IMG/VR virus record: IMGVR_UViG_2579779007_000007
Origin: a virus
Taxonomy: Duplodnaviria; Heunggongvirae; Uroviricota; Caudoviricetes
Direction: 5' to 3' (one strand)
DNA: 35,575 bases
Shown here: positions 1 through 34,123 of the stretch, in pieces
How the letters are laid out: each line of letters starts with the position of its first letter
Numbering within the stretch: position 1 is the stretch's first letter
Program-made: the position numbers and the translations under genes
Notes under the pieces: model-generated
The model's database searches: none
Seen by the model: the letters and a program-made list of their open reading frames with translations, nothing else
What the model was told of the DNA's origin: nothing

Positions 1-21
1 ATGCGAGAGACAGTCGAAATT

Positions 22-351
22 ATGCGTTATCCCGTCACTCTTACACCCGCGCCGGAAGGCGGTTATATGGTTTCTTTTGTGGATATCCCTGAAGCGTTGA
101 CCCAGGGCGAAACTGTCGCTGAAGCGATGGAAGCGGCAAAAGATGCTTTACTGACCGCATTTGATTTTTATTTTGAAGATAACGAGCTTATCCCGTTACC
201 TTCGCCATTAAATAGTCATGATCACTTTATTGAAGTACCTTTGAGCGTCGCCTCTAAGGTATTGCTGTTAAATGCTTTTTTACAGTCAGAAATCACTCAG
301 CAAGAGTTAGCCAGGCGAATTGGCAACCCGAATGTAGTCAACCCAAAATAA
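22..351 (+). CDS. hicB: HicB-family antitoxin, N-terminal domain only; ORF ends after 8 unrelated codons, apparently disrupted by the AT-rich element
   Basis: Translation MRYPVTLTPAPEGGYMVSFVDIPEALTQGETVAEAMEAAKDALL... matches the enterobacterial HicB N-domain as recalled. Start of an Xre-like HTH (ITQQELARRIG) is cut off near nt 331. GC drops from about 50% to about 35% after nt 340. Confidence 0.6.
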   Translation: MRYPVTLTPAPEGGYMVSFVDIPEALTQGETVAEAMEAAKDALLTAFDFYFEDNELIPLPSPLNSHDHFIEVPLSVASKVLLLNAFLQSEITQQELARRIGNPNVVNPK

Positions 352-583
352 CTAAAAATTTTGCAATAAAAAGCCCCATCTCAAGGACAAGGCTTAGAAA
401 TCAACTAATTAACATAGTTTCCAGATCAAAGGGGTTATAATGAAATCCATAAAAGGTGATCTGTTAGCTGGGTGCTGTATATCTAAAATGTTACTTAATT
501 AATATCGTTCTGGTGGTTAGCTTTCATCGCATCCCACCATTTTTGAGTAATCTTCATGCTATTGAATTGCATCATTTCACCTC

Positions 584-1363
584 TTACTCTGCGTCTACCA
601 TGTCACATGCAAATTGAGTGTGTTTATATTCAGAATCAAATTTTGGTTCAATTACTTCAAGACGCATGTCACCTTTTTTGCTTACCCAGATGTTATAAGT
701 GTTAACACGTCCAATAGCATCCTGTTTGGATTTACCTTCCATTGCGTTTGGATTCTCTTTAGATGGCTTGAGACTTGATTTATAAACATCATACTTGTCG
801 GAATACACAAAAGATACAGGAACATCGTCTACCATTTTGATCTTAAGTTTACCGCCGTTATTATCAAAAGTTTTGTTTCCGTAGAGTTTATCTTTTACAG
901 CTTCTGTTTCCTCACCATCGATAACTTTCCATGTAAATTTTGTAGTACATGCGTAAATCGCGGTAACATTCAGTTTCTTTACTTCTTCCTGTTTCGGTTG
1001 TTCTTCTTCAATCTTCGCAGAAGTCTCTGAATCGCTCTCTGACGCGGTTTCTTCTTTAGATAATACATTCATCAAGTTTTGGATTTGAGCGTTGTATACA
1101 GCCTCCAGTGGCTGAATCTGCCCGATATTGATCATTGTATCACGAACAGTTTTATTCCAGTTGCGTTGCTCTTGTTTAAGAGACGGATCAATCTTAACAG
1201 CCTTAACATATACTTCATGAAGTTTAGAATCCAGTGCGGAGATTGACTCATTAGCACAAATAAACTTCTCTGATTTGGTTATAGCCTTAGTGCAATCAAA
1301 GGACGCAGCATCAGCACCGAAAGCAGTAGCAGAAAGCACGATAGCAGCGATAATGTTTTTCAT
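584..1363 (-). CDS. secreted protein with N-terminal DUF1311 (LprI-like, lysozyme-inhibitor family) domain and an unknown C-terminal domain
   Basis: 259 aa ORF with signal peptide MKNIIAAIVLSATAFGADAA. Motif C..A.T..E..IC...L..LD..L...Y followed by QR.W...RD is typical of DUF1311. RBS AGAGG upstream. Confidence 0.5.
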   Translation of the reverse strand: MKNIIAAIVLSATAFGADAASFDCTKAITKSEKFICANESISALDSKLHEVYVKAVKIDPSLKQEQRNWNKTVRDTMINIGQIQPLEAVYNAQIQNLMNVLSKEETASESDSETSAKIEEEQPKQEEVKKLNVTAIYACTTKFTWKVIDGEETEAVKDKLYGNKTFDNNGGKLKIKMVDDVPVSFVYSDKYDVYKSSLKPSKENPNAMEGKSKQDAIGRVNTYNIWVSKKGDMRLEVIEPKFDSEYKHTQFACDMVDAE

Positions 1364-1721
1364 TTTATACCTCTTTTGGTATGGACTGACTTTTAGATGC
1401 TTACTTTATTGATTTTTGATATTTTTTCAATTATTGGGATGAGATTTAGTAATTAAATTAAGAAATTAATGCTTGACAAATTAAAAAGGTACTGTTCCAC
1501 GGATGAAATAAAGGGAGTTTTCGGCACCCCGGTATTTGATACGCGTGTGAGATTTTAAAACGTGATCAGTGCAGTCCTAGCGCGGTTGCTACGCGACTAT
1601 TAACCCACTTCCTAGCCCTTACCATTACTGGATCTTTCCCTTCGTTAGAATGCGATTTAGGCGCTTAGATTGTGCGTAAAACCAATAAATAAAATTACGC
1701 AAATTTAATGGAGGATAACCA

Positions 1722-2276
1722 ATGAAAGAAGAATTAACCCTTACAGAAATTTCCCGTTTATACGGCTATTCATTGAATGGTGGCGCTAAGCGATGGATAG
1801 AAAGGGGATTGCCATTTAACACCAATACCCGCCGCGTGCCAGCCAAAGAAGGAACAGAATGGGTCTTGAAAAATATTATCAACCCGCTTAAACAAACTTC
1901 TATCAAAGAACAAATCGATGTAGAGAAATTACGCCGTGAACGTGCTTTGGCAGATGCAGCCGAACGAGAGAACCAGGAAAAAATGAATCTCCTGATTCCT
2001 GTCGGTTATGTAGAACAGGAACTAGCGGAATATTGCGGGAAAGTGAAGCAGACTATTTTGCAGATCGCCACAATTGACGTTTTGGAAGTTCTCGAATCTG
2101 CCACCGACCAGAAAACATTGAAGAACAAATTAAGGGAGATCATCGAGCGTCGTTTAAATGAAGTAGGGGACTTGTTCGAAAATGCTGATTTGGGAGAAGA
2201 CGAGGAAGAAGAATTACCATTAATGGATGAACCGGAAGAAGAACCAGAAGAAGACGATGAATTTGATGTGTCTTAA
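1722..2276 (+). CDS. lambda Nu1-like terminase small subunit (putative)
   Basis: 184 aa. N-terminal winged-HTH-like segment, central EKLRRE..AL.DA segment resembling lambda Nu1, acidic C-terminus. RBS GGAGG. Pairs by family with the gpA-type large terminase at 8493. Confidence 0.5.
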   Translation: MKEELTLTEISRLYGYSLNGGAKRWIERGLPFNTNTRRVPAKEGTEWVLKNIINPLKQTSIKEQIDVEKLRRERALADAAERENQEKMNLLIPVGYVEQELAEYCGKVKQTILQIATIDVLEVLESATDQKTLKNKLREIIERRLNEVGDLFENADLGEDEEEELPLMDEPEEEPEEDDEFDVS

Positions 2277-2327
2277 AATTTCTATACTAAATACATATGT
2301 GAAAGATGTTGAGCTGGTCAACGTCTA

Positions 2328-2363
2328 CGGGGGAGAACATCCCCCGCTTAACCTTTTTCTTAT
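2328..2363 (+). terminator. putative intrinsic terminator after the Nu1-like gene
   Basis: CGGGGG-agaacat-CCCCCG hairpin followed by a T-rich tract that begins 7 nt after the stem. Confidence 0.35.
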
Positions 2364-2377
2364 TTGAGGATTTACCT

Positions 2378-2479
2378 ATGGTTGAATTTTTGATTTATCT
2401 TACTGTAGGATTAACTATCGTATATTCACTGGCACATATTGGCATTTCTGCTGTGTGTAACGCTTTCAAGTATCATTAA
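2378..2479 (+). CDS. small hydrophobic peptide (33 aa, one predicted TM helix)
   Basis: Manual translation MVEFLIYLTVGLTIVYSLAHIGISAVCNAFKYH, with GAGGA about 8 nt upstream. Below the 60-aa ORF-track cutoff. Confidence 0.3.
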   Translation: MVEFLIYLTVGLTIVYSLAHIGISAVCNAFKYH

Positions 2480-2532
2480 TTAAATCGATGAATTGAACTA
2501 TAGATGATGGTCGTGTTCAAAGAGGATTATCT

Positions 2533-2706
2533 ATGGATCTTTTTGTCTACTTTGCTACTCTGCTGTTTTTGACTATCGTCGCTGGCATTAAATTGATTTT
2601 TATATCGCTGGTGGTGTTTTTCAAATTTCTAATCGGTACGCCTTACGGCTGGGTATGCTTCTTTTTGTTTATTCTTTTTAGTTGCTGTAAAAAGGATACT
2701 AAATAA
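2533..2706 (+). CDS. small membrane protein (57 aa, two predicted TM helices)
   Basis: Manual translation MDLFVYFATLLFLTIVAGIKLIFISLVVFFKFLIGTPYGWVCFFLFILFSCCKKDTK, with AGAGGA 7 nt upstream. Confidence 0.35.
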   Translation: MDLFVYFATLLFLTIVAGIKLIFISLVVFFKFLIGTPYGWVCFFLFILFSCCKKDTK

Positions 2707-2864
2707 TAGTGTAATCTGCCTTTTCTCCTTATGGTTATTAACAGGGGATCTTCTTTGAGGATTCCCGATTAAAAGCCATAAAACACACTCCAGTACAGTG
2801 TTTTCATAGTCAGTGATCTATACAACACAAAAACATAACAAGTATAGATTGAGTATTAATCCTC

Positions 2865-2890
2865 CCGCCCCTTCGGGGCGGTTATTTTTC
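2865..2890 (+). terminator. intrinsic terminator
   Basis: CCGCCCC-ttcg-GGGGCGG hairpin followed by TTATTTTT. Confidence 0.6.
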
Positions 2891-2966
2891 TGGCTTTAAA
2901 GAATAATGTAGCATTATGTTCATTATAACCTCATCTTTGTTGTGCAAACCTAACCTAAACTTACTA

Positions 2967-2992
2967 GGGACTCTTCGGAGTCCCTTTTTTTT
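2967..2992 (+). terminator. intrinsic terminator, possibly bidirectional
   Basis: GGGACTC-ttcg-GAGTCCC hairpin followed by eight T. It abuts the stop codon of the minus-strand gene 2991..3233. Confidence 0.6.
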
Positions 2993-3233
2993 ATGCAACA
3001 ATTCGAAGTGTAAGTTTCTTATGTTGTGTAGGTTTAGTTTCATTTCGCCACTCAGGGAATACATGATCCATCATAACCGCATTAGTCTCATCAATCAGCT
3101 TTAAGGACTTTCTCAACGCCTTATTATCAGCTTTAAGAGTTTTAATCTCTGATTCCATCGCTACCATTCTTTCTTTCATTTTGGTAATTTCTAACATCAG
3201 ATTACCCAGAAATTCTTTGTTTTGATTCATCAT
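2991..3233 (-). CDS. hypothetical coiled-coil protein (80 aa)
   Basis: ORF with RBS GAGGGGTGAA. Heptad-rich sequence. Lies 16 nt downstream of the 333-aa gene on the same strand. Confidence 0.45.
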   Translation of the reverse strand: MMNQNKEFLGNLMLEITKMKERMVAMESEIKTLKADNKALRKSLKLIDETNAVMMDHVFPEWRNETKPTQHKKLTLRIVA

Positions 3234-3248
3234 AGATTCACCCCTCTA

Positions 3249-4250
3249 TTAAGCTGCGTATGCGTAGGCGCTGTAGTTGGTGTCGTAGATAGCGTCATGC
3301 AGTGCCATCTGTGCTTCGCGGATCTCGTCTTCGTTTACTTCAATCTCTTCTTGTTCTTCTTCGGTATCTTCCCAAGTGGTTTTGAATTTAGCCATAAAGT
3401 TATTGCGCAGGGATTCAAAGTTAGTAACAGGTGCGGATTTTTCTTCAACCGGAACTACTACCGGATCAGCTTCTTTCTGTTCTTCCTGTTCTACTTTTTC
3501 ACCATTACCCCAGCGATAGTTAAGGAGTTCTTCCAGTTCTTCATCAATGGATTTTTCTTCAACTGCTTCAACTTCAACCGCTGCTACTTCGAAAGTGGTT
3601 TCCTGTGCTGCCAGTTCAGCTTTCAGAGATGCGTTTTCAGCTTCCAGTTCAGCAATGCGTGCTTTCAGTGCTTCAACTTCGGAAGATTCAACCACTGCAA
3701 CTTCTTCTTTAACTTCTTCAACTACTACCGGAGCAACTTCTTTCTGTGCTTCTTTTTTGCAGAAGAAGGAGGAAGTAACCTGTAATGCGTGGTTGTAGAA
3801 GGAACCGCCTTTAGCGGTGTTAACAGTACCAGAAACATCCTTTACAGTGGATTCGGTAGCAACAGTACGGAAGCGTTTTGCGACTTCCTGGGTCTCTACG
3901 CCGTATTCGTTACGCTTGCTCTTGTGATGCATTACAGCACGGAAGCCGGAAGCAGTTTTAACAACAGCCAGATAGTAAGTTTCATCGGCTTTAACAGCAC
4001 GAGCGAAGCAATAAACGGATTCACCTTCTACCAGTGTAGGTTTAACGTGACGTTTGTCGAAACGGTTAGTGATCTGCCATTCAGCACCGTCTTTGATGCC
4101 AGCATTCTGACGCATTTCGGTCAGAGTCTTACCGGATACTACTTCAAAGGATTTGTCTTGTTTGCTTGCTTTACCTTCCATGACGGTAATGTTCAGTTTG
4201 CCGTTGGATTTAATAAACAGGTTGAAGGTGATGCGCTTAGAATTTTTCAT
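3249..4250 (-). CDS. hypothetical protein: N-terminal globular domain, central coiled coil (EALKARIAELEAENASLKAEL), acidic C-terminal region
   Basis: 333 aa ORF with RBS GGAG. Coding-like composition. No family recognised. Confidence 0.6.
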   Translation of the reverse strand: MKNSKRITFNLFIKSNGKLNITVMEGKASKQDKSFEVVSGKTLTEMRQNAGIKDGAEWQITNRFDKRHVKPTLVEGESVYCFARAVKADETYYLAVVKTASGFRAVMHHKSKRNEYGVETQEVAKRFRTVATESTVKDVSGTVNTAKGGSFYNHALQVTSSFFCKKEAQKEVAPVVVEEVKEEVAVVESSEVEALKARIAELEAENASLKAELAAQETTFEVAAVEVEAVEEKSIDEELEELLNYRWGNGEKVEQEEQKEADPVVVPVEEKSAPVTNFESLRNNFMAKFKTTWEDTEEEQEEIEVNEDEIREAQMALHDAIYDTNYSAYAYAA

Positions 4251-4295
4251 TTATAAATACTCCTGAATGCTGTGTTAGTTTTAATTGTTCATATC

Positions 4296-4330
4296 AAAAG
4301 CCTCCTTGCGCCAACAGGGAGGCTTTTTTA
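4296..4330. terminator. bidirectional terminator-like hairpin between the 60-aa and 333-aa genes
   Basis: AAAA-GCCTCC-ttgcgccaacag-GGAGGC-TTTTTT: an A-run before and a T-run after the stem. Confidence 0.4.
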
Positions 4331-12534: not shown

Positions 12535-14547
12535 ATGCTTAAATTTCGCCGCGATCTTAACGGTTACGGTGGAGTTATTAATGAAGGGCATAACGATCAA
12601 TACGAATTTGAAATTGCTTTCTCAAGTACACAGCCTTATCAGCGCCAATTTTGGGATGAGCAAAATCAAGAAATGGTGGTATTAGATGAAATTCTGGTAC
12701 ATACACCGGAAGCGGTTGATCTGTCTCGTCTGAATAATAACGCTCCGTTGCTGTTCAATCACAATTTCGATAATCACATTGGTGTAGTTTGTAACGCTCG
12801 AATCGATGCGGATAACGTAGGTCGTGCTCTGGTTAAGTTCTCCAAGCATGGGACTTTGGCTAATGATATTCGTAATAAAGTCATTGAAGGTACGATGGAA
12901 AAAATTTCGGTCGGCTATGACATTAAAGAATATCACATCGACTACACCAAAGGACAATTGATTGTTACTAAGTGGGCACCCTATGAACTCTCATTTGTCA
13001 CCGTTCCCGCAGACGATACGGTCGGTTTAAATCGCTCTCTAAATACTATCACAGTTAATTTGGAGGCTAAACGCGATATGACTAAAGAACAAATCGAAGA
13101 AATCAAAGAAGAACAAGAACCCGCTCAGGTTGAAGAAACTCCGGTAGAAGAAAATAAAGAACCGGAAGTTGAAGAAACTCAAGAGCGCCAAGTTGAAGAG
13201 AATAAAGAAGATGAAAATCTCGAAGACGGAAAAGACGCTGAACATCCTGAAAGTGTTGATGATGATAGTTCAACTGTTCGGGAAACAGAAGAAGTAAAAG
13301 AAGAACGTGAAGCTGCTCCGGTTGAAGAAGAAAAAACCGAGGAAGTGGCTGAACGTTCCGAAGAAGACGAATTAGAAATTCGCGAAATTGCACGCGAGTT
13401 AAATATTAACGAAGACGATGAAGAATTTAAACGCGCATTGGCAAATAAAGAAATTACGCCGGAAGCATTCCGCACTAAGGCACTAAATAACATTACCAAT
13501 GCTCAACGTAATAACGAACAAATTAATAAGGAACAAATCATGGAAAAAACTTTCGATCTTAATAACGTAATCCGCTCCCTGGTAGATGGCGACGTGCTCG
13601 GCGCTAACGAAGCTGAATATTCCGCAATGGCTGCTACTGCAACTATGCAGCGTGGTCGTGCTGCTCGTGGTGGCTCTGTATTCGTTCCGGCTGCTGCTAT
13701 GCGTGCTGCTGCTGATGGCAACACCAAAGCTAATCTGGTTGCTATCACTGACGAAAAACTGATGACTGAATCCTACATCGAAATGCTGATGCCTCAGAGT
13801 GTTTTAGGCCGCCTCGGGGTGACTGTTTATAGTGGCTTGACTTCTCCGACCGCTATTCCAAAAATGACTAAATCCAGCGTTGACGCTTTCGGATTCGTAG
13901 ATGAAAATGGCGCTGCCCCCGAGTCACATGCGGAATTTTCGAACGTGAAACTGTCTCCGAAAACTTTTGCTGGTGGCAACCCGATCAGCCGTCAGTCGCT
14001 GAAAACCGTTCCGGGCATCGCTACCCTGATCACCGATCACATTAACAAATCTGTTCGGATCAAACTGGAACAACTGATTCTGTCTGATAAAGAAAATGCT
14101 CGTGGTCCGGCTGGTCTGGTTAAGCAACTGGTAGACGCTAGCCGCGTTACCAAGAAAGCTGCTTTCTCTTATAAAGATTTCCTCAAGGAGATTGCTCAGC
14201 TTACGGACGCTGGCGTTCCTGCTCAGGCGATCAAGTTTGCGATGAGCGGTGCAACTGCTGCTGAACTGGAATCTACCCTGAAAGATAACGGCGTTTCCGG
14301 TTATATCATCGAAAACGGCAAACTGGCTGGTTACGAAGTAGTTACTTCTGGCGTTATTCCGGCAGATCACATCGTTCTGGGTGACTTCTCCGGTATTACC
14401 ATCGGTGAGTGGGGCGGTCTGGAACTTGACATGGATCTAACTACATATCGGGATCGTGGGGCGGTAGTGCCTAGAATCTTTGTAGATTTGGACTACGTTG
14501 TAGCACAGCCGGAAGCGCTGAAAGTTCTTCACATCTCCGCTGACTGA
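12535..14547 (+). CDS. fused prohead protease (HK97/S78-like) - acidic scaffold-like linker - HK97-fold major capsid protein
   Basis: 670 aa. Residues 1-170 match the S78 prohead protease pattern, residues about 180-330 are E-rich, the C-terminal 340 aa are HK97-MCP-like. Ends with TGA. Confidence 0.8.
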   Translation: MLKFRRDLNGYGGVINEGHNDQYEFEIAFSSTQPYQRQFWDEQNQEMVVLDEILVHTPEAVDLSRLNNNAPLLFNHNFDNHIGVVCNARIDADNVGRALVKFSKHGTLANDIRNKVIEGTMEKISVGYDIKEYHIDYTKGQLIVTKWAPYELSFVTVPADDTVGLNRSLNTITVNLEAKRDMTKEQIEEIKEEQEPAQVEETPVEENKEPEVEETQERQVEENKEDENLEDGKDAEHPESVDDDSSTVRETEEVKEEREAAPVEEEKTEEVAERSEEDELEIREIARELNINEDDEEFKRALANKEITPEAFRTKALNNITNAQRNNEQINKEQIMEKTFDLNNVIRSLVDGDVLGANEAEYSAMAATATMQRGRAARGGSVFVPAAAMRAAADGNTKANLVAITDEKLMTESYIEMLMPQSVLGRLGVTVYSGLTSPTAIPKMTKSSVDAFGFVDENGAAPESHAEFSNVKLSPKTFAGGNPISRQSLKTVPGIATLITDHINKSVRIKLEQLILSDKENARGPAGLVKQLVDASRVTKKAAFSYKDFLKEIAQLTDAGVPAQAIKFAMSGATAAELESTLKDNGVSGYIIENGKLAGYEVVTSGVIPADHIVLGDFSGITIGEWGGLELDMDLTTYRDRGAVVPRIFVDLDYVVAQPEALKVLHISAD

Positions 14548-16364: not shown

Positions 16365-19300
16365 ATGCAATCAATCCAATTTAAACGCACACAAACGGCT
16401 GGTAAAAAGCCGACGCCGGAACAATTATCACAGGGTGAGATCGCCTTACAACTGGCGGACCATGTGATTTACACCAAAGACAAAAATAATAACGTAGTCC
16501 AAATTAGTGTTTCTCCAGAAAAACACGCTGAACTTAACACTAAAGTAGACAATAACAAAACTAGCACTGACCGTGTTATTGCTTCCAACAAACAAGAGGC
16601 CGCTAATAATCTGGCTAGTGCTAAAGCTGAACTGAATCAGACTATTACCACGAAAGATACAGCGACCAATAAGCGCATTGATGCTACCAACACCACTGTT
16701 AGTAACTTAACCCAGACAGTTACGGCAAATAAAACCGATGCCGACACTAAGATCAATAACCTTACGGGGACCGTATCTGCGAATAAGACCGCAATTGAAA
16801 GAACCGTTGCCGCAAACAAATCTGATGCAGATAGCAAACATGCAGCTTTAACGAAAACGGTCACTGACAATAACACCGCGATTAACAACAAGGTTAATAC
16901 CACTAACACCAACGTTAGCAACTTAACTAAAACTGTTACTGCAAATAAAACCGATGCAGATAACAAAATTTCTAGCTTAACTAGCGCGGTTGCAGCTAAC
17001 AAGACAGCGATCGAAAAGACTGTTTCCGACAATAAGAAAGACGCGGATACTAAGATTACCAATCTTACTGGCACTGTTAATAGCAACCATACCGCAATTA
17101 ACAACAAGGTAGACCAGAATAAATCTTCTACTGATGCCGCAATTGCAGCCGCTAACAAACGAATTGATGGTATTGAAGGTAGCAATGATGCTCTTTACAT
17201 CAAGAAGAATACCAATACTAAGCATGGTGGGTATCTGTTAAGCAAGACAGCTAACTATCTGGAAGACCAGACATCACGAGATCTTAACTACTTTGGTGCT
17301 TTCCGTACCAATGGTCAAGATGGACTCATGGATCTAACTCTTAACGTTCCTCACTCTTCCGGTAAAGCGCACGGTCGCGGATTTACTTTCCGTTATGCGT
17401 CTGGTGGATCTCGTGTTGAAACCTATGGTTTTGATAGAGAAGGACAGAAGAACTTTAGCTATAAGATGTATCACGAAGGTGATAAACCGACTCCTGCTGA
17501 AATTGGCGCATATACCAAAGGCGAAATTGATAAGATGTTTATTAAAAATGTCACAATGTCTGTTCCTTCTGGTAGTGAATCCCGTGCTTATTTCAAGATT
17601 GCTACGGCTACGATCCCACAAAATGGTCGTATGGTAATGCTTCGTATCTTCGGTGGTAATGGTTATAACGTTAACTCCTATGATCAGGTTGATTTCCTTG
17701 AAATTGTTATCCGTAGTGGTAACGATAGACCTAAAGGTGTTAGTGTTGCTGCATATCGTCGAAATGCTCTTAACGTTCATCAAGTATTTGCGGTTAATAC
17801 TTCCGGTGATAACTACGACATTTACGTTAACTACGGTCGTTATACTGATAACGTTATTGTCGAATATGGTAAGACTAGCGGTGTTTCACTGACTGTTCAT
17901 GACACCCCAGATATGACTAACGTTAAGCCGTCTACTGGTGTTACAGATGGACGTGTTATTACAATGTTCAATACCGAAAACAAGGCCGGAACGTTGATGT
18001 TTGATAATAACGGTCAGGGAACATATGATATTGTCAGTTTGAATAACGATTCAGGTACTGGTAAAAAATATCTGCGTAAATTCCGTAGTAAAGCCGCAGA
18101 AACAATCTGGCATGAAACTGTTCAAGGTAACGTATATCGTTTAGCGACTGGCACTACCGATTCTAGCGAAGTTCTACGAATCACTGGTCGCACTATGTAT
18201 ACTGGTAAAGCTGTTTTTGATGCCGGATCTAATACTATTCGTATGCAGCGACCGAATGGTCAAAGTAACTATTTGGAATATTGGGATAACCGTAACGGTG
18301 CAAATAAACGTCAAGGTTGGATCGGTTATGGAAATGCCGATACTAACGCTATGCAGATGTATAACGATAGCGGTACTAACAATATTGGCTTAGAACAAAG
18401 CGGTCAAATCTCTCTGAATACTGGATCTACTAAAGTAGTTTATACCAACGGCGAGTATGTATCTGCTAACTCAAATGCATTCCGTATGATTTACGGTAAC
18501 TATGGTGCATTCTGGCGTAATGATGGTCAAAACGTATATTTTCTGTCTACTGCCGAAAATGATAAATTTGGTGGTTGGAACGGCTATCGTCCATTCATTT
18601 ACAATCTGGGTAGCGGTAATGTTACTTTGGGTGGTGATGGTAACGAAGGTGCATTAGTCTTAGAACGTGCAAGTCGTGCAGCTCGTTTTGCTGGAAACGC
18701 TTTCATCAAAGGTCAACATTTAACACTTGATGCTGGTGCTGGACAATCCCGCGACTATTTCCGTTTTAACCATTGGGGTGATAGCAATAACGCTCGCGAC
18801 AACATTCTATATCTCGAAGACAGCAAAGGACGCCATTTCAGCACCGAACGTAATATGGCTACAGGTGCATTAAAAGCATACTTCTTAGGAGATCTTGAAG
18901 TTGCTGGTCAAATGCGATGGGGTAAGAATACCGGACAATCTAGCTTCAATATTCGTGCATGGGGTAATGATACTCGTAAACAAGTATTAGAATGCGCAGA
19001 TGAAAGCGGCTGGCATTTCTACACACAGCGTGCTGGCGGTCCTGATACTACCGCAATCGAGTTTAGCGTAAACGGTAAAATTAACGCTCCCCGACTGTCT
19101 ATTAGTCAGGATGCAACCATTCCTAAGTTTAATAGCGGTTTTGGTGTTGGTGTTGCTAACGGATTGGGTGGAAATTCTATTGTTTTAGGCGATAGTGATA
19201 CTGGATTTAAACAAAACGGTGATGGTGTCCTTGATACCTACGCTAATAACGTTAATGTTGTTCGCCATACGTCAGGCGGTGTTACATTTAACCGTCGTGT

Positions 19301-19973
19301 TGTTGTTGCTAACAAAAATGGTTTAGGTTATTCCGATATCTCTGATGTAACTCGTGACCGTGCTCCATTCCTGGTTAACATGGATAGTATTAAGGGGTCT
19401 GCTGCATATTTCCCGATCATCGCTGGTTACAGTAACTTAGGTGATGTTGGTTATCGTCAGTCCTTCGAGTTTGGTTGGACGGGTAGCGGGTCGAATAGCA
19501 CATGGCGTACTGGTATTATCCGTATGCGTGGCGATAACGCCAACGGGCAGCAAGCACGCTGGGAATTTACTATGGATGGTGATTTTACCTGCCCCCGTAA
19601 CGGTAGCTTTAACGATGTTTACATTCGCTCTGACTCCCGTTTGAAGATTAACAAGGAAGAATTACAGGACGGCGCATTAGAGAAAGTAAACTCCCTGAAA
19701 GTCTACACCTACGATAAAGTTAAATCTCTTTCAGATGACACAGTGGTTAAACGCGAAGTAGGTATTATTGCTCAGGATCTGGAAGAAGTGTTGCCGGAAG
19801 CAGTAGGTATTCAATCCACCGAAGATCCAGAACAACCGGAAGCAATTAAGACTATTTCTAACTCTGCTGTTAATGCCTTGATTATTAAAGCGATTCAGGA
19901 AATGGACGCCAAATATCAAGCTAAGATTGAAGCATTGACTAAAGAGATTGCCGAACTCAAAGCAACTAAATAA
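16365..19973 (+). CDS. long tail fibre with C-terminal S74 intramolecular-chaperone domain
   Basis: 1202 aa. Repetitive shaft, KPTPAEIGAY motif, C-terminal YIRSDSRLKINKEEL... matching the autoproteolytic chaperone domain of T5 pb1 and endosialidase-type fibres. Confidence 0.85.
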   Translation: MQSIQFKRTQTAGKKPTPEQLSQGEIALQLADHVIYTKDKNNNVVQISVSPEKHAELNTKVDNNKTSTDRVIASNKQEAANNLASAKAELNQTITTKDTATNKRIDATNTTVSNLTQTVTANKTDADTKINNLTGTVSANKTAIERTVAANKSDADSKHAALTKTVTDNNTAINNKVNTTNTNVSNLTKTVTANKTDADNKISSLTSAVAANKTAIEKTVSDNKKDADTKITNLTGTVNSNHTAINNKVDQNKSSTDAAIAAANKRIDGIEGSNDALYIKKNTNTKHGGYLLSKTANYLEDQTSRDLNYFGAFRTNGQDGLMDLTLNVPHSSGKAHGRGFTFRYASGGSRVETYGFDREGQKNFSYKMYHEGDKPTPAEIGAYTKGEIDKMFIKNVTMSVPSGSESRAYFKIATATIPQNGRMVMLRIFGGNGYNVNSYDQVDFLEIVIRSGNDRPKGVSVAAYRRNALNVHQVFAVNTSGDNYDIYVNYGRYTDNVIVEYGKTSGVSLTVHDTPDMTNVKPSTGVTDGRVITMFNTENKAGTLMFDNNGQGTYDIVSLNNDSGTGKKYLRKFRSKAAETIWHETVQGNVYRLATGTTDSSEVLRITGRTMYTGKAVFDAGSNTIRMQRPNGQSNYLEYWDNRNGANKRQGWIGYGNADTNAMQMYNDSGTNNIGLEQSGQISLNTGSTKVVYTNGEYVSANSNAFRMIYGNYGAFWRNDGQNVYFLSTAENDKFGGWNGYRPFIYNLGSGNVTLGGDGNEGALVLERASRAARFAGNAFIKGQHLTLDAGAGQSRDYFRFNHWGDSNNARDNILYLEDSKGRHFSTERNMATGALKAYFLGDLEVAGQMRWGKNTGQSSFNIRAWGNDTRKQVLECADESGWHFYTQRAGGPDTTAIEFSVNGKINAPRLSISQDATIPKFNSGFGVGVANGLGGNSIVLGDSDTGFKQNGDGVLDTYANNVNVVRHTSGGVTFNRRVVVANKNGLGYSDISDVTRDRAPFLVNMDSIKGSAAYFPIIAGYSNLGDVGYRQSFEFGWTGSGSNSTWRTGIIRMRGDNANGQQARWEFTMDGDFTCPRNGSFNDVYIRSDSRLKINKEELQDGALEKVNSLKVYTYDKVKSLSDDTVVKREVGIIAQDLEEVLPEAVGIQSTEDPEQPEAIKTISNSAVNALIIKAIQEMDAKYQAKIEALTKEIAELKATK
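16640..17170 (+). repeat. intragenic tandem repeats encoding two ~69-aa shaft repeats
   Basis: Repeated NLT.TVTANKTDAD.KI..LT..V.ANKTAIE.TV. The low-complexity repeats create the spurious antisense ORF 16637..17185. Confidence 0.6.
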
Positions 19974-20674: not shown

Positions 20675-21181
20675 ATGGCAAATGTCGTTAAAGTTCCTGG
20701 CTGGATCGGGTCATCTGCTGTATCGGTGACGGGTAAGCGATGGATGAAAGAAGCACTAACAGCTTTAAAAGTTCCGGCTCCGCGTAATATGTCGGCAATG
20801 GCTGGTCGTGGTATGGATACGGTTGTAGCTACTGCTGCATGGTCTACTTCATTGGGTAATAACTGGGGGGTAACTGCTTCAAACTATCCTGTTTCCGGTA
20901 TGCAAAGCAAAGGATCTATGGAGAACCCCGAAAACGTGGGCGTAGGGCGTCTGATTGGCGTTATCGTTGGTCAATTCAATGGCGGTACTCCTACTATGGC
21001 TGTATATCTCCAGAACGGTAGAGCGGGGAATATAACCGTTAATTTGGGTGGTGCTACTGTCACTGTTCCTTATAACAGTATGCAAAGTGGTTTTCATTAC
21101 TATTGGTTAAGCAATCCTCCGGCTGCTTTCCTCAATAACATTAAGAAGACTGGCACTAAGCAGACTTTGAAAATCTCTTAA
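20675..21181 (+). CDS. hypothetical tail-associated protein (168 aa)
   Basis: ORF with RBS GGAG, located between tail tube and chaperone genes. Confidence 0.5.
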   Translation: MANVVKVPGWIGSSAVSVTGKRWMKEALTALKVPAPRNMSAMAGRGMDTVVATAAWSTSLGNNWGVTASNYPVSGMQSKGSMENPENVGVGRLIGVIVGQFNGGTPTMAVYLQNGRAGNITVNLGGATVTVPYNSMQSGFHYYWLSNPPAAFLNNIKKTGTKQTLKIS

Positions 21182-25658: not shown

Positions 25659-26078
25659 ATGCTAAAAACTAGGCTTATCACCGATTACATCAATTCTTTA
25701 ATAGGTCAGGAGTTCGTTCAGGGTGAGAATGATTGCAATCTCATTGCATGTAAGATCATCGATATTCTCGCTGGTACTGACCTATATAATTCTCTTTATA
25801 AAAAATATTCAACTAAAGAAGAAGGCTTGAAAATCTGCAAAGAATTAAGCGGGTATTCAAATATCCTTCAACCAATTAAGAAACATTTCAAATTAGTCAC
25901 TGATGATTTACAGGACGGCGACTTACTGGTCACAGCCCACAAATTAGGAAACCGTAATTATTATTCCGTAGTTCCTCATTATTCCGGTTATGGCCTCGTT
26001 GAAGAAGATGGTATCTGGATGACCATTCCTGTTTCAGACATTGACTATGAACAAGTTTATAGATTCGGGGGTGAATAA
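25659..26078 (+). CDS. tail assembly protein with NlpC/P60-like Cys-His motif (gpK-like)
   Basis: Start at the ATG preceded by GGAGG. Motifs QGENDCNLIAC and VVPHYSGYG. Stop overlaps the next start. Confidence 0.5.
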   Translation: MLKTRLITDYINSLIGQEFVQGENDCNLIACKIIDILAGTDLYNSLYKKYSTKEEGLKICKELSGYSNILQPIKKHFKLVTDDLQDGDLLVTAHKLGNRNYYSVVPHYSGYGLVEEDGIWMTIPVSDIDYEQVYRFGGE

Positions 26079-29000
26079 TGGGATTTGAAATATTAGTAGG
26101 CGCGGTTATTGCTGGTGCGTCTGCTGGGATGGCTGCTGCTGCAACATTTTCTGTTATGACCGCAGTCGCTATCGGTATGGCTGCTGGTGCAATGACCTTG
26201 ATCGCTTCCACTGTAGGCGCACCAAAAACACCGAAAGTACAAAGCCCAGATAATGCGGTGACACTAGGAACATCAAACGATCCGAAGACAGTATTACCCG
26301 TTCTTTTCGGTACTACCCGCACGGGTGCAATCTGCGTTTACAAGGCAATTTCTAAGCAAGAAAACAATAAGTTAGTGCAAATCTTCGCTATTGCCGAGGG
26401 TGAAATCGACCATTACAAAGCACTCTTTATTGATAATAAAAATGTTCTTGTTGGTAAGAACATGACGATCCGTGATGGTATTCTCGATAAGGGCAACATT
26501 AAAGAAGAATATCGTAAAGTATTAGAAGTCGAGTTCCGCACGGGCAAGAATCCTAACACCGCTTTGTCGCTGGCAAAACGTCACTTAGGGTCAGACTGGA
26601 ACGACAACTACAAAGGCAATGGTATTGCAACCATGTGTATTGTGTTACGTCGTGATGACAAATCTCTTGCTGCTGGTGTTGATATTCTCCAGCCTAATAG
26701 CCAGGTGGCAGTAGACGTTTGCGGGTTAAAGATTCGTAACCTTGAAACCAATGCTATTGAGGCTAGCACTAACGGCGTGGACCAGATTTTCCATTATCTG
26801 ACAAATACAAAATATGGTCTTAGTGTACCAATTGAAAACATCAACGTTGATTCATTCCTGAAAGTACGTAAACAAGTACGCCAGATGGACCTACATTCAA
26901 ACGGTGCATGTGATCCGAACGCCAGCTTTAAAGAGAACTTGACCAGTCTTATGCAGACTTTCGGCGGGGTGATGTTCGAATCCTTCGGAAGAATTACCCT
27001 GAAACTGGATGCTCCTGATATTGTTAAGCATACCTTCAATGAAGACAATATTATGATGGGTAAGGTATCACTGAAAACAGGTGGCACTAACGGTTATTTC
27101 AATACCATTAACGCGATGTATCAAGAACCATCAATCGACTATTCAGAGCAAATGCTACGTTATCCGGCTGATGCTGAAAACGATGCTACTATTCGTCAAG
27201 ATGGTCGAATTATCGCTAAAGATATTGAATATCGTTTTGTTAAGTCTAAAGCCCAGATTGATAAACTTGCGAGTATTGAACGAAATAAATCTCGTATCAC
27301 TCAGGTTATCAGCTTTATGACTACTGACGCATTCACTGCCGAAGTTTGGGATGTTATCAGCGTAACCTATGATGAATTGAAACTGAATAATTCCTTATGG
27401 CGTATTACTGCAATTGATCGCTCGATTGATTCTGGTATTGCTGGGATGATGACTATCACCGCTACAGAATATAATTCTCAGGTTTATACTGACCTGAACT
27501 ATGCGGCTAACCCAGATAACCGACCAAGTGGTTTACCGGATTCAATGACAGTACAGAAGCCTACTAATTTCAGAATTAAGGCAACTGGCGAGACGATTTA
27601 CGGTAAAAACGTTACTTTGACATGGGATGCGCCGGAAGATTTTAACCGTTATGGTTTTCAGATTGATTACCGTGTAAGCGGATCACCTAACTGGATTAAG
27701 CTGGGACAGACTTCACAGCAAATTTTCAGTGTCAATGCACTGGCAAAAGATCGTTCTTATGATTACCGAGTTTGTGCTTTCGGTATCATCGCTCGATCCG
27801 ATTGGGTAGAACTGGTTAACCAGAATCCGACTGTTACCTATGAATTGCCGACTCCGGTTATTCGAATCAAAAATCAGGGTAGCACGCCTGGTACTTTCGA
27901 AGGCAATGATCTGATTATCGAATGGGAAAATCAGCAACAATTAGATGTTGAGATCAACGGTGAAACTAACAAGTTTAGTGACCTGTTTGAAGCATACATT
28001 ATCAAGGTGACTAACAAGGCTGGTAAGTCTATTCAGTACCGTACCCGCGATCCTGAATCATGGACTTATACGCTTGATATGAACCAGTTTAACGGCCTTT
28101 CGCGTCAACTGACGGTAGAAGTATCAGCTAAGGGCTATAACAACTCAGAGAGCGCCCCAGCGCGTTTAGTGGCTATCAACCCACAACATAAGCCAATGAA
28201 AGGTTTTAGTGCGCGTGGTGGCTTTAATACTGCGTTTGTTAGCTGGGCGGATGACGTAGAACATGACTATGCAGGGTCAATCATCCAGTATGCAACCGAC
28301 AACACTTTCTCAGATGCAAGGGCAGTAAGTACGAATAGTGTTAGCCATACTTCCTTTGATATTGCTGACGGTGATTATTATATCCGTGGTGCTCACTACG
28401 ATATTTTCGGTATGGATGATGCTGTTTGGTCTGAACCGTATTTCATGCAAATGAAATCTACCATTAGCTGGGACGATCAGGACAAAGAAGCACTGGAAGA
28501 TCTGATCGGTTTACAAGATCGCTTAGATGAAACTATCGCGGATGCTATTAAGCAAGCTGGCGCTAATGCCGATGCTAAAATTGATGCAATGCATAAGCAA
28601 ATCACTACCGAGACGGGTAAAACTGTTCAAGCCTCAGCCGATACCTTAAAGAGTCTGATTGCTTCTGGTGATAAGGCAAGTTCAACTAAGATTGATCAGG
28701 TTAAAGCTGAACTGAAAGGCGATATCACCAAAGAAGTTAGCGCCTCCGCTACAACCCTGAAACAAGCTATTGCTACCAGTGAAGCAGCAAGCGCAAGTAA
28801 GATTGACCAAGTTCGGGTAGAAATGGATGGCAAGATTGCTGGTGTGAATCAGGAAGCGGACGTTAAGATCGATGCTTTGAAAGGAACCATTAACAGCAAA
28901 TACAATCTAGCGGTTAATGCAGATGGTCGCGTGGCTGGTATTCACATGAGCGCAACTAACGATCCGGCACAACCGACTAAAATCATCTTTACGGCTGATA

Positions 29001-29854
29001 AAATTGCTGTAGCTCCGCAGAACGGGACCGATGTTTGCCCGTTTGGTATCGAAGGTAACAAGGTTTATCTCGATAATGCGATGATTCGTAATGCTGCAAT
29101 TGGCACAGCCCAGATTAATGATGCGGCAATTACTACCGCTAAGATCGGCAATGCTGCAATTAACAGCGCGAAGATTCAGGACGGGGCGATCACCAATGCG
29201 AAGATCGTAAACGGTGCTATTGATAACGCCAAAATTGGTAACTATATCCAGTCTTCCAACTGGAACGGATCAACCGGATGGCATATCAACAAGAACGGGT
29301 CCGCTACGTTCATGAACGCTACCGTTAAAGGTAATATCACGGCTGATTCTGGTACTCTGAACAACGTCACGATTAACTCTAGCTGTGTTATTAAGGGTAT
29401 GCTTGAAGCTACTCAGGTTAAGGGTGATTTCGTTAAGGTGATTGGTCGTAAGTTCCCACACCGTGATGTTAACGTTGATAATGGTTATGGCGGCTATCCG
29501 CAAGGTACAGTAACCGTTCGCGTTGAAGATGATCACAAGTTCGATCGTCAAATCGTTATTCCGGCGATTAGTTTTGGTGGATTGCGAGCGCGTGAAGGGT
29601 CGAACAATAATACCTATTACGACACCTGTCGCCTGATTGTTCGTAAGAATGGGTCAGAGTTGTATAATAGGGCGTATGGCGGTAATACTGGTCTTTACTC
29701 AGGTGTTATTGATATGCCAGCGGGTAAAGGTGCTGTGACCTTGACCTTTGAAGTGCAATCAAGCGCAATCAACAACTGGACGCCTAGCACATGGATCAGT
29801 GATTTAACTGTAATGGTAACTAAAAAAGCCACTACGGGTATTACTGTTTCTTAA
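26078..29854 (+). CDS. central tail fibre / host specificity protein: gpI C-domain-like N-terminus fused to gpJ-like body
   Basis: 1258 aa. N-terminal Gly/Ala-rich hydrophobic segment plus PVLFGTTRTG resembles the lambda gpI C-terminal half. FN3-like repeats. C-terminal DDHKFDRQIVIPA...VIDMPAGKGAVTLTF...VMVTKKATTGITVS resembles the lambda J receptor-binding domain. Confidence 0.85.
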   Translation: MGFEILVGAVIAGASAGMAAAATFSVMTAVAIGMAAGAMTLIASTVGAPKTPKVQSPDNAVTLGTSNDPKTVLPVLFGTTRTGAICVYKAISKQENNKLVQIFAIAEGEIDHYKALFIDNKNVLVGKNMTIRDGILDKGNIKEEYRKVLEVEFRTGKNPNTALSLAKRHLGSDWNDNYKGNGIATMCIVLRRDDKSLAAGVDILQPNSQVAVDVCGLKIRNLETNAIEASTNGVDQIFHYLTNTKYGLSVPIENINVDSFLKVRKQVRQMDLHSNGACDPNASFKENLTSLMQTFGGVMFESFGRITLKLDAPDIVKHTFNEDNIMMGKVSLKTGGTNGYFNTINAMYQEPSIDYSEQMLRYPADAENDATIRQDGRIIAKDIEYRFVKSKAQIDKLASIERNKSRITQVISFMTTDAFTAEVWDVISVTYDELKLNNSLWRITAIDRSIDSGIAGMMTITATEYNSQVYTDLNYAANPDNRPSGLPDSMTVQKPTNFRIKATGETIYGKNVTLTWDAPEDFNRYGFQIDYRVSGSPNWIKLGQTSQQIFSVNALAKDRSYDYRVCAFGIIARSDWVELVNQNPTVTYELPTPVIRIKNQGSTPGTFEGNDLIIEWENQQQLDVEINGETNKFSDLFEAYIIKVTNKAGKSIQYRTRDPESWTYTLDMNQFNGLSRQLTVEVSAKGYNNSESAPARLVAINPQHKPMKGFSARGGFNTAFVSWADDVEHDYAGSIIQYATDNTFSDARAVSTNSVSHTSFDIADGDYYIRGAHYDIFGMDDAVWSEPYFMQMKSTISWDDQDKEALEDLIGLQDRLDETIADAIKQAGANADAKIDAMHKQITTETGKTVQASADTLKSLIASGDKASSTKIDQVKAELKGDITKEVSASATTLKQAIATSEAASASKIDQVRVEMDGKIAGVNQEADVKIDALKGTINSKYNLAVNADGRVAGIHMSATNDPAQPTKIIFTADKIAVAPQNGTDVCPFGIEGNKVYLDNAMIRNAAIGTAQINDAAITTAKIGNAAINSAKIQDGAITNAKIVNGAIDNAKIGNYIQSSNWNGSTGWHINKNGSATFMNATVKGNITADSGTLNNVTINSSCVIKGMLEATQVKGDFVKVIGRKFPHRDVNVDNGYGGYPQGTVTVRVEDDHKFDRQIVIPAISFGGLRAREGSNNNTYYDTCRLIVRKNGSELYNRAYGGNTGLYSGVIDMPAGKGAVTLTFEVQSSAINNWTPSTWISDLTVMVTKKATTGITVS

Positions 29855-31506: not shown

Positions 31507-31860
31507 ATGTTAAGCAAACATTTTTCTCGCAAGGAATTTAAATGTAAATGCGGAAAATGTGATTATGATACAATCGACGCTGAATTACTGGTAATTCTTG
31601 AGGATGTACGAGAGCACTTCGGTAAACCAGTGATTATTAACAGTGGCAACCGTTGCCCGACTCATAACAAGAATGTAGGCGGGGCAGCCAATAGCTATCA
31701 CGTTCGAGGCCGTGCGGCTGACATTGTTATCAAGGGTGTCTCACCTGATATTGTTCATGCTTATCTTGATGGGAAATATCCTACTCAATACGGCTTAGGA
31801 AAATATAAAACATTTACGCATATCGATTCCAGATCAAAAAAATCACGGTGGAATGGATAA
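31507..31860 (+). CDS. peptidase M15-family peptidoglycan peptidase (putative endolysin)
   Basis: 117 aa. SYHVRGRAADI and a downstream His match the M15 zinc-peptidase H..G.A.D pattern, the class that includes T5-type endolysins. Confidence 0.65.
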   Translation: MLSKHFSRKEFKCKCGKCDYDTIDAELLVILEDVREHFGKPVIINSGNRCPTHNKNVGGAANSYHVRGRAADIVIKGVSPDIVHAYLDGKYPTQYGLGKYKTFTHIDSRSKKSRWNG

Positions 31861-32394: not shown

Positions 32395-34074
32395 TTAAAT
32401 TCCAAATTCTTGTAATGGACCTGGTATTTCTTCTTCTGGTTTCCAGTTCTTATCTGTCAGCATGTCTAAACATGGATGCAGAACAAGCCCGTTACTCTCC
32501 AGAATCTGCCTATCATTGATAGTCTTCAAATCAACGAAGATCCGGCCTTTCCTCGGTCCTCTTGAATTTTCTATTACAACTCTCTGGGTCTTGCCATCGA
32601 TGTATTCCAGTACAAACAAGTTTTTGTACTTGTCAATCCTGCTACACCCGATCCGTTTTAGAGCTTGCTTAATCTTAAACCGGACCTTAATGCGATCCTC
32701 GTTGTAAACATCTTCTAAATCAAATTCTGCGAGCTTCTCCCAGCCTTGAGAGTCAACAGAATACATTTCCTCTTCTGCCATCTTAAGTTGATTGTAGAGT
32801 GTTTCACGCTCGCTATTGAGGGTAGTAATCTGATCGGCTAGCTCCTTCGTTGCTCCTGTCATAGCAGAAAGGGTAATCAGGTTATCAATCTTGCGTGATA
32901 TTTCATCAATCTGTACTTTCAAAGCCGGAACCGGATTAGCCTTATCTTCAGCAATCCAGATTTTATCAGCCAGCAATTGCAATACAGCTTTCTCTAATTG
33001 GTCGCCGCGAAAACTCCAGTTTGTATGCACACATTCAATACGACTAGAGCGCATTGCATCGCATGAATAACGATATTGGTTAGGCCGTCTGTTTGTTCCT
33101 TTCACCTTAACCATAGCGGAACCGCAATGTTCACATTTCAATAGACCAACACCACTAAGCAAGGGAATAGGTTTAGCTTCTTCTTTGTCTCCAAAGTTAC
33201 ATGCTCTAACACCAATGCTTTTCTTAAGGTGATAAAACTCAGCGTCATCTAGCACACGAGGATAATAATCCTTTAACTCATACTTAACGCCATCTACAGA
33301 GATTTCCTTGATACCAATCAAAGCGCGGGTATGGAACAACCTTTCAATCATTGCCCGTGACCAGTTTGAATGCCTCTTGTGACTTGCGGCTGGTGGTGGT
33401 GTGTATGTCGCGTTAAGGTGATCCAGTATCTCGGCGGTTGACCGTCCATTCCTGCGTAATTCCACAACTTCCTGAACAATAGGGAAGAAGACCGGATGAG
33501 GAAGCACATAACCAGATGTGGTATCAGTCCACCACATATTCTTTCCAATTTCCTCGATTGCAACAGCCGGATTTTGTGGATTTTCTTGATGAGCTTTAAT
33601 CTTAATCAGTGCGCTTGAGTTAGTACGATTGCGCTTAGTCTGGCTTTCCTCATTACCACGGATGAATAAAAGGATGGAGAACATCAGGTCCATCGGGTTA
33701 GCGGTAACAGTATCAAGCGAGTAGATCTTGTTATCCATGCCAGTAACAATGGTTATCCCCCTACGGATGATTGAAAGGAATAACTCCTGCGCACTGACAA
33801 TATCGGCACGGGATAAACGGTCCAAGTTTTCGATGAATAGCCAGCTACCAACAGGAACGGATCTACCTATTGCATCAAGGAAACGAGATAGCGCCCCTGT
33901 TTTGGAGTTAGCACCCTTAAACGCAGATACACCCAGATCCTGATAATCATTTACCAGTTCAAGGTCATACTTTACCGCAATCTCTCTAGCCATCCTGATT
34001 TGTCGTTCATAACTCGAACCATCATTCTGACGCATAGACGAGAAGCGAATATACGAATACAGTTTAGTTTTCAT
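32395..34074 (-). CDS. large serine recombinase (candidate integrase)
   Basis: About 560 aa. N-terminal resolvase-type motif YIRFSSMRQ, recombinase domain, zinc-ribbon cysteines (CEHCGSAM...YRYSC), C-terminal coiled coil. ATG start at 34074; the ORF track uses a TTG at 34089. Confidence 0.85.
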   Translation of the reverse strand: MKTKLYSYIRFSSMRQNDGSSYERQIRMAREIAVKYDLELVNDYQDLGVSAFKGANSKTGALSRFLDAIGRSVPVGSWLFIENLDRLSRADIVSAQELFLSIIRRGITIVTGMDNKIYSLDTVTANPMDLMFSILLFIRGNEESQTKRNRTNSSALIKIKAHQENPQNPAVAIEEIGKNMWWTDTTSGYVLPHPVFFPIVQEVVELRRNGRSTAEILDHLNATYTPPPAASHKRHSNWSRAMIERLFHTRALIGIKEISVDGVKYELKDYYPRVLDDAEFYHLKKSIGVRACNFGDKEEAKPIPLLSGVGLLKCEHCGSAMVKVKGTNRRPNQYRYSCDAMRSSRIECVHTNWSFRGDQLEKAVLQLLADKIWIAEDKANPVPALKVQIDEISRKIDNLITLSAMTGATKELADQITTLNSERETLYNQLKMAEEEMYSVDSQGWEKLAEFDLEDVYNEDRIKVRFKIKQALKRIGCSRIDKYKNLFVLEYIDGKTQRVVIENSRGPRKGRIFVDLKTINDRQILESNGLVLHPCLDMLTDKNWKPEEEIPGPLQEFGI

Positions 34075-34081
34075 ACCATTT

Positions 34082-34123
34082 CCAAACAAAAACGCCCCTA
34101 CCGCGTATTATAACGATAGGGGC
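34082..34123 (-). terminator. minus-strand terminator upstream of the recombinase
   Basis: On the minus strand: GCCCCTATCG-loop-CGGTAGGGGC followed by GUUUUUGUUUGG. The loop contains TATAAT. Confidence 0.4.

Follow-up and report, generated by a model that had tools for sequence, protein, structure and literature searches.

The described proteins closest to the one studied here carry the same DUF1311 domain (Pfam PF07007, now named LprI). In LprI of M. tuberculosis (Rv1541c), the domain is combined with an MliC domain, and the MliC domain suffices for lysozyme resistance (PMC7933661); the view that the LprI domain is itself an inhibitor is, according to the authors of the ScwA study, without experimental support (PMC7933661). 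ScwA, a soluble periplasmic DUF1311 protein of Salmonella, has DsbA-dependent disulfides and no role in lysozyme resistance; it raises the level of the lytic transglycosylase MltD, and its overproduction leads to lysis (PMC7933661). Etsi4, a stand-alone DUF1311 protein, protects E. coli against Etse4, a periplasm-toxic T6SS effector that its authors describe as cell-wall-targeting (PMC12981562), and lysozyme-like T6SS effectors are adjoined by DUF1311/LprI genes (PMC9796082, PMC12135965). The tie between DUF1311 and periplasmic cell-wall enzymes is recurrent but loosely defined. Among phage proteins, the point of comparison is Spackle of T4 (gp61.3), which inhibits the gp5 tail lysozyme (PMC7677548).

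Here, we compare with these systems a two-domain protein encoded at one end of an E. coli prophage, in a stretch of DNA of 35,575 nucleotides that we call the window. Like LprI, the protein is exported and has an N-terminal DUF1311 domain (PF07007) followed by a small beta-barrel; the order of helical N-domain, linker and beta-domain therefore recalls LprI. However, LprI is a lipoprotein, whereas the phage protein has an SPase-I signal, and the phage barrel comprises ~125 aa compared with ~90 in the MliC domain of LprI. The phage protein is also polymorphic and phage-borne, and its barrel has neither detectable sequence homology to the MliC/PliC/PhiA family nor the conserved inhibitory loops. 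Etsi4-type immunity proteins and ScwA are periplasmic, have the same DUF1311 domain and are tied to cell-wall enzymes. The cited T6SS immunity proteins, though, are described only as DUF1311-domain proteins, chromosomal and encoded beside an effector gene, and ScwA has its DUF1311 domain at the C-terminus, the remainder of the protein being unrelated; phage-borne copies or an exchangeable second domain are reported for neither. Spackle resembles the phage protein in being the small, secreted, disulfide-bonded, helical-bundle product of an early-type gene of T4-like phages, and phage RB49, which has a homologue of our gene, is without it. Spackle is a single, well-conserved domain of 75 aa with demonstrated activity, whereas the phage DUF1311 protein adds a variable barrel.

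The literature contained no functional study that we could find of this protein or a close homologue; in a 2006 comparative paper, the RB49 ORF is listed solely as a weak DUF1311 match (PMC1524935). The domain annotation was already known; the new elements are the near-identity of the 5' half to a Krischvirus gene, the predicted barrel, and barrel cassettes that virulent and temperate phages exchange.

The prophage and its outermost gene

The window is a segment of an E. coli chromosome that consists of the 5' part of hicB (1-326) and a prophage of ~35.3 kb, with prophage DNA from 327 onward. The same 7-bp sequence, TTGGCAA, is present at both junctions; attR and the 3' part of hicB lie ~37 nt past the end of the window (L003, ~17,610). 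A 564-aa large serine recombinase is encoded at the opposite end of the prophage (32395..34089). The prophage is siphovirus-like, with a terminase, a portal, an S78-protease/capsid fusion and a GpJ-like tip protein. Its side fibre is of the T-even type and combines Gp34_trimer, S74 chaperone and Gp38_N modules. The endolysin is an M15 peptidase (31507..31860), and the lysis cassette is ~30 kb from the DUF1311 gene. At the DNA level, the prophage resembles no sequenced phage beyond two short modules.

Several details of the element can be noted in passing. The product of the major capsid gene (12535-14547; 670 aa) joins an S78 prohead protease domain to an HK97-type capsid domain. The side tail fibre (16365-19973; 1,202 aa) has the Gp34_trimer and S74 chaperone modules, the Gp38_N adhesin (20675-21181) comes after the fibre and the tail-tube gene, and the GpJ-type tip is at 26078-29854; the fibre region is highly mosaic across related prophages. 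At the attachment site, the truncated HicB is a 116-aa ORF (window 1-351) that has lost its C-terminal part and has a phage-coded NPNVVNPK ending, and the upstream toxin gene hicA is intact beside the disrupted hicB. The disruption may alter HicAB regulation in lysogens.

The DUF1311 gene lies on the minus strand, with its ATG start codon at 1363 and its stop codon at 584-586. The gene, its location and its description agree with the preliminary description and are confirmed by the ORF list, PF07007, PHROG 14799 and PGAP. The PF07007 match (24.7 bits, against a gathering score of 22; E = 3.2e-5) covers aa 24-76 and profile positions 1-71 of 106, and is marginal but reproducible: the relatives RB49p262 and Marfa gp026 score 26.0 and 22.4 bits, respectively. 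PHROG 14799 (‘unknown function’) matches over the full length (E = 8.5e-114) and PHROG 4675 matches the first 128 residues only; searches with PADLOC and NCBIfam returned no match. In a 99.5%-identical genome, NZ_CP119011, PGAP names the product ‘lysozyme inhibitor LprI family protein’ (WP_028132401.1). The features of the locus and of related loci are collected in Table 1.

Table 1. Features of the DUF1311 locus and of related loci (window coordinates unless an L number is given)
Feature	Position	Strand	Basis
attL core TTGGCAA inside hicB	320..326	.	alignment of window 1-600 and the attR side (L003) to intact K-12 hicB
Intrinsic-terminator-like hairpin, 10-bp stem then TTTTATT	371..395	-	consensus scan
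26-aa ORF (MMQFNSMKITQKWWDAMKANHQNDIN), strong SD (TAAGAGGTGA)	495..575	-	ORF list, sequence
Secreted DUF1311 + beta-barrel protein, complete gene, 259 aa	584..1363	-	ORF list, PHROG, PGAP, purifying selection
Variable C-terminal domain, aa 131-259, predicted 8-stranded antiparallel beta-barrel, Cys139 + Cys253	587..973	-	
Acidic disordered linker, aa 106-130, recombination breakpoint inside (983/993)	974..1048	-	pLDDT, charge, megablast
DUF1311/LprI helical-bundle domain, aa 20-105, Cys24-Cys36 pair	1049..1306	-	
Signal peptide, aa 1-19 (MKNIIAAIVLSATAFGADA, predicted cleavage ADA|AS), non-lipoprotein	1307..1363	-	sequence features
Shine-Dalgarno AAGAGG, 6 nt 5' of ATG	1370..1375	-	sequence
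Sigma-70 promoter-like site, TTGAAA-16-TAAGT-type (TTGAAA / TAAAGT, 9 of 12)	1403..1430	-	consensus scan
Alternative slot ORF, 101 aa, E. coli PigCaeca_2	L017 4649-4954		
Alternative slot ORF, 101 aa, E. coli strain 06-00048	L018 4648-4953		
Tad2-like ORFs	L006 8511-8759; L032 2863-3111; L034 2933-3178; L036 6906-7154		
Marfa loci	L019 144-425 and 2501-3259		
ev099 locus	L020 3001-3699		

The product is probably a soluble periplasmic protein, judging from its export signal. The SPase-I signal peptide was assigned by reading the sequence, which bears out the earlier claim of export; it is near-invariant across 21/21 homologues, and pLDDT is <50 there, as expected for such a peptide. A lipobox with a +1 Cys is absent: the residues S-F-D precede the first Cys, and a lipobox does not tolerate D at -1. 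The N-domain resembles solved DUF1311 structures in its predicted helical bundle and its N-terminal Cys pair, and the Cys pairs 24/36 and 139/253 are conserved among barrel-type homologues. The linker has a net charge of about -4.6, with pLDDT <50 for residues 105-129.

Control signals around the gene are of unequal quality. The promoter-like site (read 1430->1403) sits ~40 nt before the start codon and is a weak candidate; a consensus scan finds seven such sites in the region against 6.3 expected from shuffles, i.e. chance level. Terminator-like sites number five against 1.9 expected from shuffles, and the hairpin between the gene and attL (read 395->371) would end a transcript just inside attL. 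Taken together, the terminator-like hairpin and the weak promoter-like site suggest that the gene is an independent transcription unit. The 26-aa ORF starts 8 nt past the DUF1311 stop codon, 5' of the hairpin, and is possibly co-transcribed with the DUF1311 gene. It is kept in prophages with one of the other alleles (L028 type) and replaced in those with another (P0015 type).

The gene is the outermost of the prophage, with its stop codon 258 nt from attL, so its placement at the edge of the element in the preliminary description was correct. The moron position proposed there also holds up. A conserved backbone (window 1400-4300) is found in 64 of 5,426 complete E. coli genomes, 26 of which have the DUF1311 gene, and backbone relatives integrated at ycdX or codB carry an unrelated 101-aa ORF in the same slot and in the same orientation. 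The 101-aa ORF has neither a signal peptide nor a family match and is described as cytoplasmic. Because relatives at other sites have a different small gene there, the slot beside attL is a cargo slot. The moron features of the DUF1311 gene are thus its presence or absence against a conserved backbone, its place at the end of the element, a good terminator-like hairpin and a weak promoter-like site.

Constant N-domain and exchangeable barrel

In an alignment of 22 sequences, residues 1-125 are almost invariant, whereas invariance in the C-terminal ~125 residues is confined to Cys139, Gly150 and Cys253. Codon-level comparisons of the N-domain and most of those of the linker give dS of 0.07-0.26 and dN/dS of about 0.02-0.36, a range that excludes the divergent homologue from contig P0021. 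The exceptions are the linker compared with the P0015 allele (dS 0.41-0.54) and the 28-codon linker of the window compared with that of P0004 (dN/dS 1.17). Between allele types of the C-domain, synonymous sites are saturated (pS 0.70-0.86). There is purifying selection in each compared pair of C-domains, and dN/dS is 0.10 between the window and its nearest allele (P0004 type). Altogether, there are about eight types of C-domain, with 22-54% amino acid identity between types.

Saturated synonymous sites together with low dN/dS rule out hypermutation in situ or positive selection of the C-domain; the pattern is one of cassette exchange without rapid local evolution. From these comparisons, the C-domains are old, separately conserved versions attached to a recently shared 5' half. 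The breakpoints are sharp. Among prophages in hicB, similarity to other alleles breaks at window position 983 or 993, within the linker, and returns either at 576, which is 7 nt past the stop codon, or at 411. The 26 E. coli genomes with the gene divide into 12 with this allele and 14 with another. All three prophage alleles (3/3) have counterparts in Krischvirus; for example, prophage allele L028 and Krischvirus contig L034 are 93% identical in nucleotides across the C-domain.

The domain structure was modeled with AlphaFold2 using the family alignment. The model has a helical N-domain (aa 24-105) and an eight-stranded beta-domain (aa 132-258; pLDDT ~88-92), and the C-domain is predicted to be an 8-stranded, disulfide-clamped beta-barrel, with the conserved Cys139 and Cys253 as the clamp. 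The most compact matches of the barrel in the PDB are hydrolase inhibitors of the PhiA/PliC type, but its fold scores are shared with unrelated barrels, and the 8-stranded OmpW, Cap15, NHBA and TbpB match equally well.

A possible homology to MliC, read by eye from motifs (YxC, VSFVY, Y.W.KGD and a C-terminal Cys), was rejected, because profile, Pfam and hhalign comparisons were all negative. None of 15 C-domains matches MliC (PF09864) or any other Pfam family at E <= 10, a C-domain profile run against PDB sequences finds neither MliC nor PliC, and hhalign of the C-domain against the MliC alignment gives a probability of 3.4%. The lysozyme-contact loops of MliC (SxSGAxY and xKG), invariant in the MliC alignment, are not conserved in the C-domain. 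Since these sequence tests fail, the barrel is to be described as an MliC/PliC-like fold outside the family. A deep search with the C-domain alone among 1.84 billion representatives gave four matches, two of which are short repeats in large unrelated proteins.

Relatives in virulent phages and plasmids

Megablast aligns the 381 nt at window 983..1363, which encode the signal peptide, the DUF1311 domain and the greater part of the linker, to a gene of the virulent T4-like genus Krischvirus at 95-97% nucleotide identity, with matches that include RB49, Phi1, JSE and GEC-3S. The RB49 protein, RB49p262 (252 aa), is 58% identical overall, near-identical to residue ~125 and divergent beyond. Full-length homologues are found with tblastn in 57 phage records and a truncated one in JSE; for comparison, searches with the gp5 tail lysozyme give 60 Krischvirus-level records, including one gp5 gene-only entry and several duplicates. 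The gene is essentially universal in this virulent genus. Thus, its function must pay during lytic infection too. Reading the gene as a bacterial one acquired as a lysogenic-conversion factor does not survive the comparison: the closest relatives are in virulent Krischvirus, at ~96% nucleotide identity over the 5' half. Rather than ‘lysogenic conversion’, the label should be a phage accessory gene that virulent phages also carry. Its role probably lies in competition between phages or in defence of the cell wall.

In Krischvirus, the gene always occupies the same block, which runs from topoisomerase gene 52 to holin t and consists of small genes in the early orientation; holin t is ~2.3 kb away, and the distal tail-fibre genes are no more than ~6 kb away. 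An early-type promoter (TTGACA-17-TAAGAT) stands before the RB49 gene, and its neighbours likewise have their own. Nucleotide similarity between the prophage and Krischvirus genes stops ~6 nt 5' of the ATG (query end 1363-1369), and the upstream control region is therefore the prophage's own. At the DNA level, the prophage is linked to sequenced phages by one further gene only, that of the tail fibre, which is 73-84% identical in nucleotides to Krischvirus gp37. With both the fibre and the DUF1311 modules in common, these two kinds of phage evidently encounter each other in shared hosts, where modules pass between them. In several Krischvirus contigs, a Tad2-like ORF (anti-Thoeris family, weak Pfam match) lies ~1.3-2 kb downstream of the DUF1311 gene. 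The block from gp52 to holin t looks like an accessory or counter-defence region.

In other phages, the signal peptide, DUF1311 domain and low-complexity linker are joined to quite different C-terminal domains. Such phages include Klebsiella phage Marfa (gp026), T4-like phages of Aeromonas, the lambdoid ev099, where the gene sits between exo and xis, and the Krischvirus-like metagenomic contig P0021. Judging by sequence, the C-terminal domains in the other phages are unrelated and helical. DUF1311 proteins with 35-48% identity to the N-domain are also encoded on plasmids (hits H121-H147), namely ~110-kb non-mobilisable plasmids of Enterobacter and E. coli and 400-500-kb megaplasmids of Pseudomonas.

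Candidate roles

The preliminary description had assigned the N-domain to the DUF1311/LprI family, as the PF07007 score supports, and had called this a lysozyme-inhibitor family. Membership in DUF1311 stands; the inhibition does not carry over with it, as it is credited to the MliC domain and ScwA is negative for lysozyme resistance (PMC7933661). For this protein, ‘lysozyme inhibitor’ is an inherited domain label. Protection from peptidoglycan hydrolases had also been put forward. Protection from the prophage's own endolysin is unlikely, that enzyme being an M15 peptidase and not a muramidase, and protection from foreign peptidoglycan hydrolases is our best guess.

We tentatively propose, by analogy with Spackle, that the protein is a periplasmic binder or inhibitor of incoming peptidoglycan hydrolases, which would make it a factor for superinfection exclusion or for protection against lysis from without. 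It would bind and neutralise peptidoglycan-degrading enzymes that enter the periplasm from outside, most likely the tail-associated lysozymes of superinfecting contractile-tailed phages. Early synthesis in virulent Krischvirus would protect the infected cell, and synthesis from the prophage's own promoter would protect the lysogen. In this scheme, the N-domain, being constant, would recognise an equally constant partner; the barrel cassette, of which virulent and temperate phages exchange roughly eight ancient versions, would confer a second specificity that varies. The variable specificity would not concern the phage's own tail lysozyme. Co-evolution of the barrel with gp5 was considered and rejected, as gp5 identity across the Krischvirus records is 98.8% or higher throughout; since gp5 is invariant whatever the barrel allele, the variable domain must address something else. 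Old alleles, purifying selection and sharing across phage types would fit an interaction with polymorphic competitors.

Polymorphism of old alleles is also typical of effector/immunity pairs, and so the gene might instead provide orphan immunity against T6SS effectors or lysozyme-like bacteriocins, its alleles matching different effectors. In the literature searched, T6SS immunity (Etsi4 against Etse4) is the only experimental role of a stand-alone DUF1311 protein, DUF1311/LprI genes are predicted orphan immunity genes in T6SS islands, and protection of the host benefits a prophage. We nevertheless consider immunity unlikely: the gene occurs throughout a virulent genus whose infection cycle is short and for which protection from T6SS seems to be of little value, an adjoining effector gene is absent from all contexts seen, and the cited known immunity proteins are single-domain. 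Allelic diversity weighs differently on a ScwA-like modulator of host lytic transglycosylases or envelope proteins, which would tune the sacculus, for example lysis timing or envelope integrity, as the conserved murein enzymes of E. coli do not explain about eight ancient barrel alleles. The location of the gene is ambiguous here, near holin t in Krischvirus but far from the lysis cassette in the prophage. ScwA itself offers a precedent, with its effects on MltD and on lysis and unchanged lysozyme sensitivity, and a YecT/DUF1311 gene is among the beta-lactam resistance determinants of a Tn-seq study; the ScwA domain is C-terminal, however, and joined to an unrelated remainder, and we regard such a modulator as improbable.

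A variable domain could also mirror varied receptor use, which raises the possibility that a receptor or outer-membrane protein is masked from the periplasmic side in the manner of T5 Llp or Cor, with alleles following receptor type. The prophage and Krischvirus do have tail-fibre modules as well as this gene in common, and the distal tail-fibre genes of Krischvirus are nearby. Llp and Cor are lipoproteins, though, and the phage DUF1311 protein is without a lipobox. In E. coli prophages, moreover, the barrel allele is not linked to tail-fibre or gp38 type, and tracking of the receptor-binding protein by the barrel allele was rejected for prophages: of the 12 genomes with this allele, just CE0007a and, partly, 14EC029 match this fibre region, and HCP5S3_I4 has a 94%-identical fibre region yet a different barrel allele. 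Masking is thus very unlikely.

Exclusion of incoming hydrolases is in keeping with the signal peptide and Cys pairs, the DUF1311 precedents, the LprI-like architecture, the cargo slot and the gain that a prophage would have from defending its host; the absence of the MliC motifs from the barrel counts against it. It also agrees with several properties of the Krischvirus gene. With its early-type promoter and its place in a block of early genes, its expression class matches that of Spackle. RB49 has a gp5 tail lysozyme, and a Spackle homologue was not detected in RB49, where the best tblastn match (E = 0.049) is inside gene 41. No sequence homology or specific fold link was found between Spackle and the phage DUF1311 protein. 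A simple complementary distribution of the two holds for RB49 and fails in Marfa, in which a Spackle homologue and the DUF1311 gene are 2 kb apart; because Marfa has both, they are not simple substitutes.

A broader claim, which we regard as rather doubtful, is that the locus would be the first case of an exclusion factor of the periplasm that is both modular and polymorphic: a constant DUF1311 domain, joined by a recombination-prone acidic linker to one of ~8 swappable barrels, would circulate between virulent T4-like phages and temperate siphophages that have hosts and tail-fibre modules in common. The prophage would have borrowed the exclusion gene of a lytic phage for defence of the lysogen, the constant module disarming a conserved incoming hydrolase and the cassette a variable one. 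If the proposed exclusion function holds, Krischvirus and its relatives protect an infected cell from the tail lysozymes of later phages, which is the Spackle problem, by means of a two-domain protein unrelated to Spackle, and the same gene serves a temperate phage as a host defence. The locus would then also be a compact natural case of virulent and temperate phages exchanging domain cassettes at a defined breakpoint. E. coli phage-therapy collections commonly contain Krischvirus phages, and roughly 0.5% of complete E. coli genomes carry the prophage copy, which could then be a phage-resistance determinant worth screening. Should the function prove different, caution would still apply to the PGAP name ‘lysozyme inhibitor LprI family protein’, which is a domain label only.

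RB49 also lyses its host with an M15-type peptidase (p102, L012 4719-5108). With M15 lysis in both RB49 and the prophage, a muramidase inhibitor would therefore not block the phage's own lysis. The occurrence of M15/D-Ala-D-Ala-carboxypeptidase-type endolysins in both phages may be either a coincidence or a correlate of a putative muramidase inhibitor.
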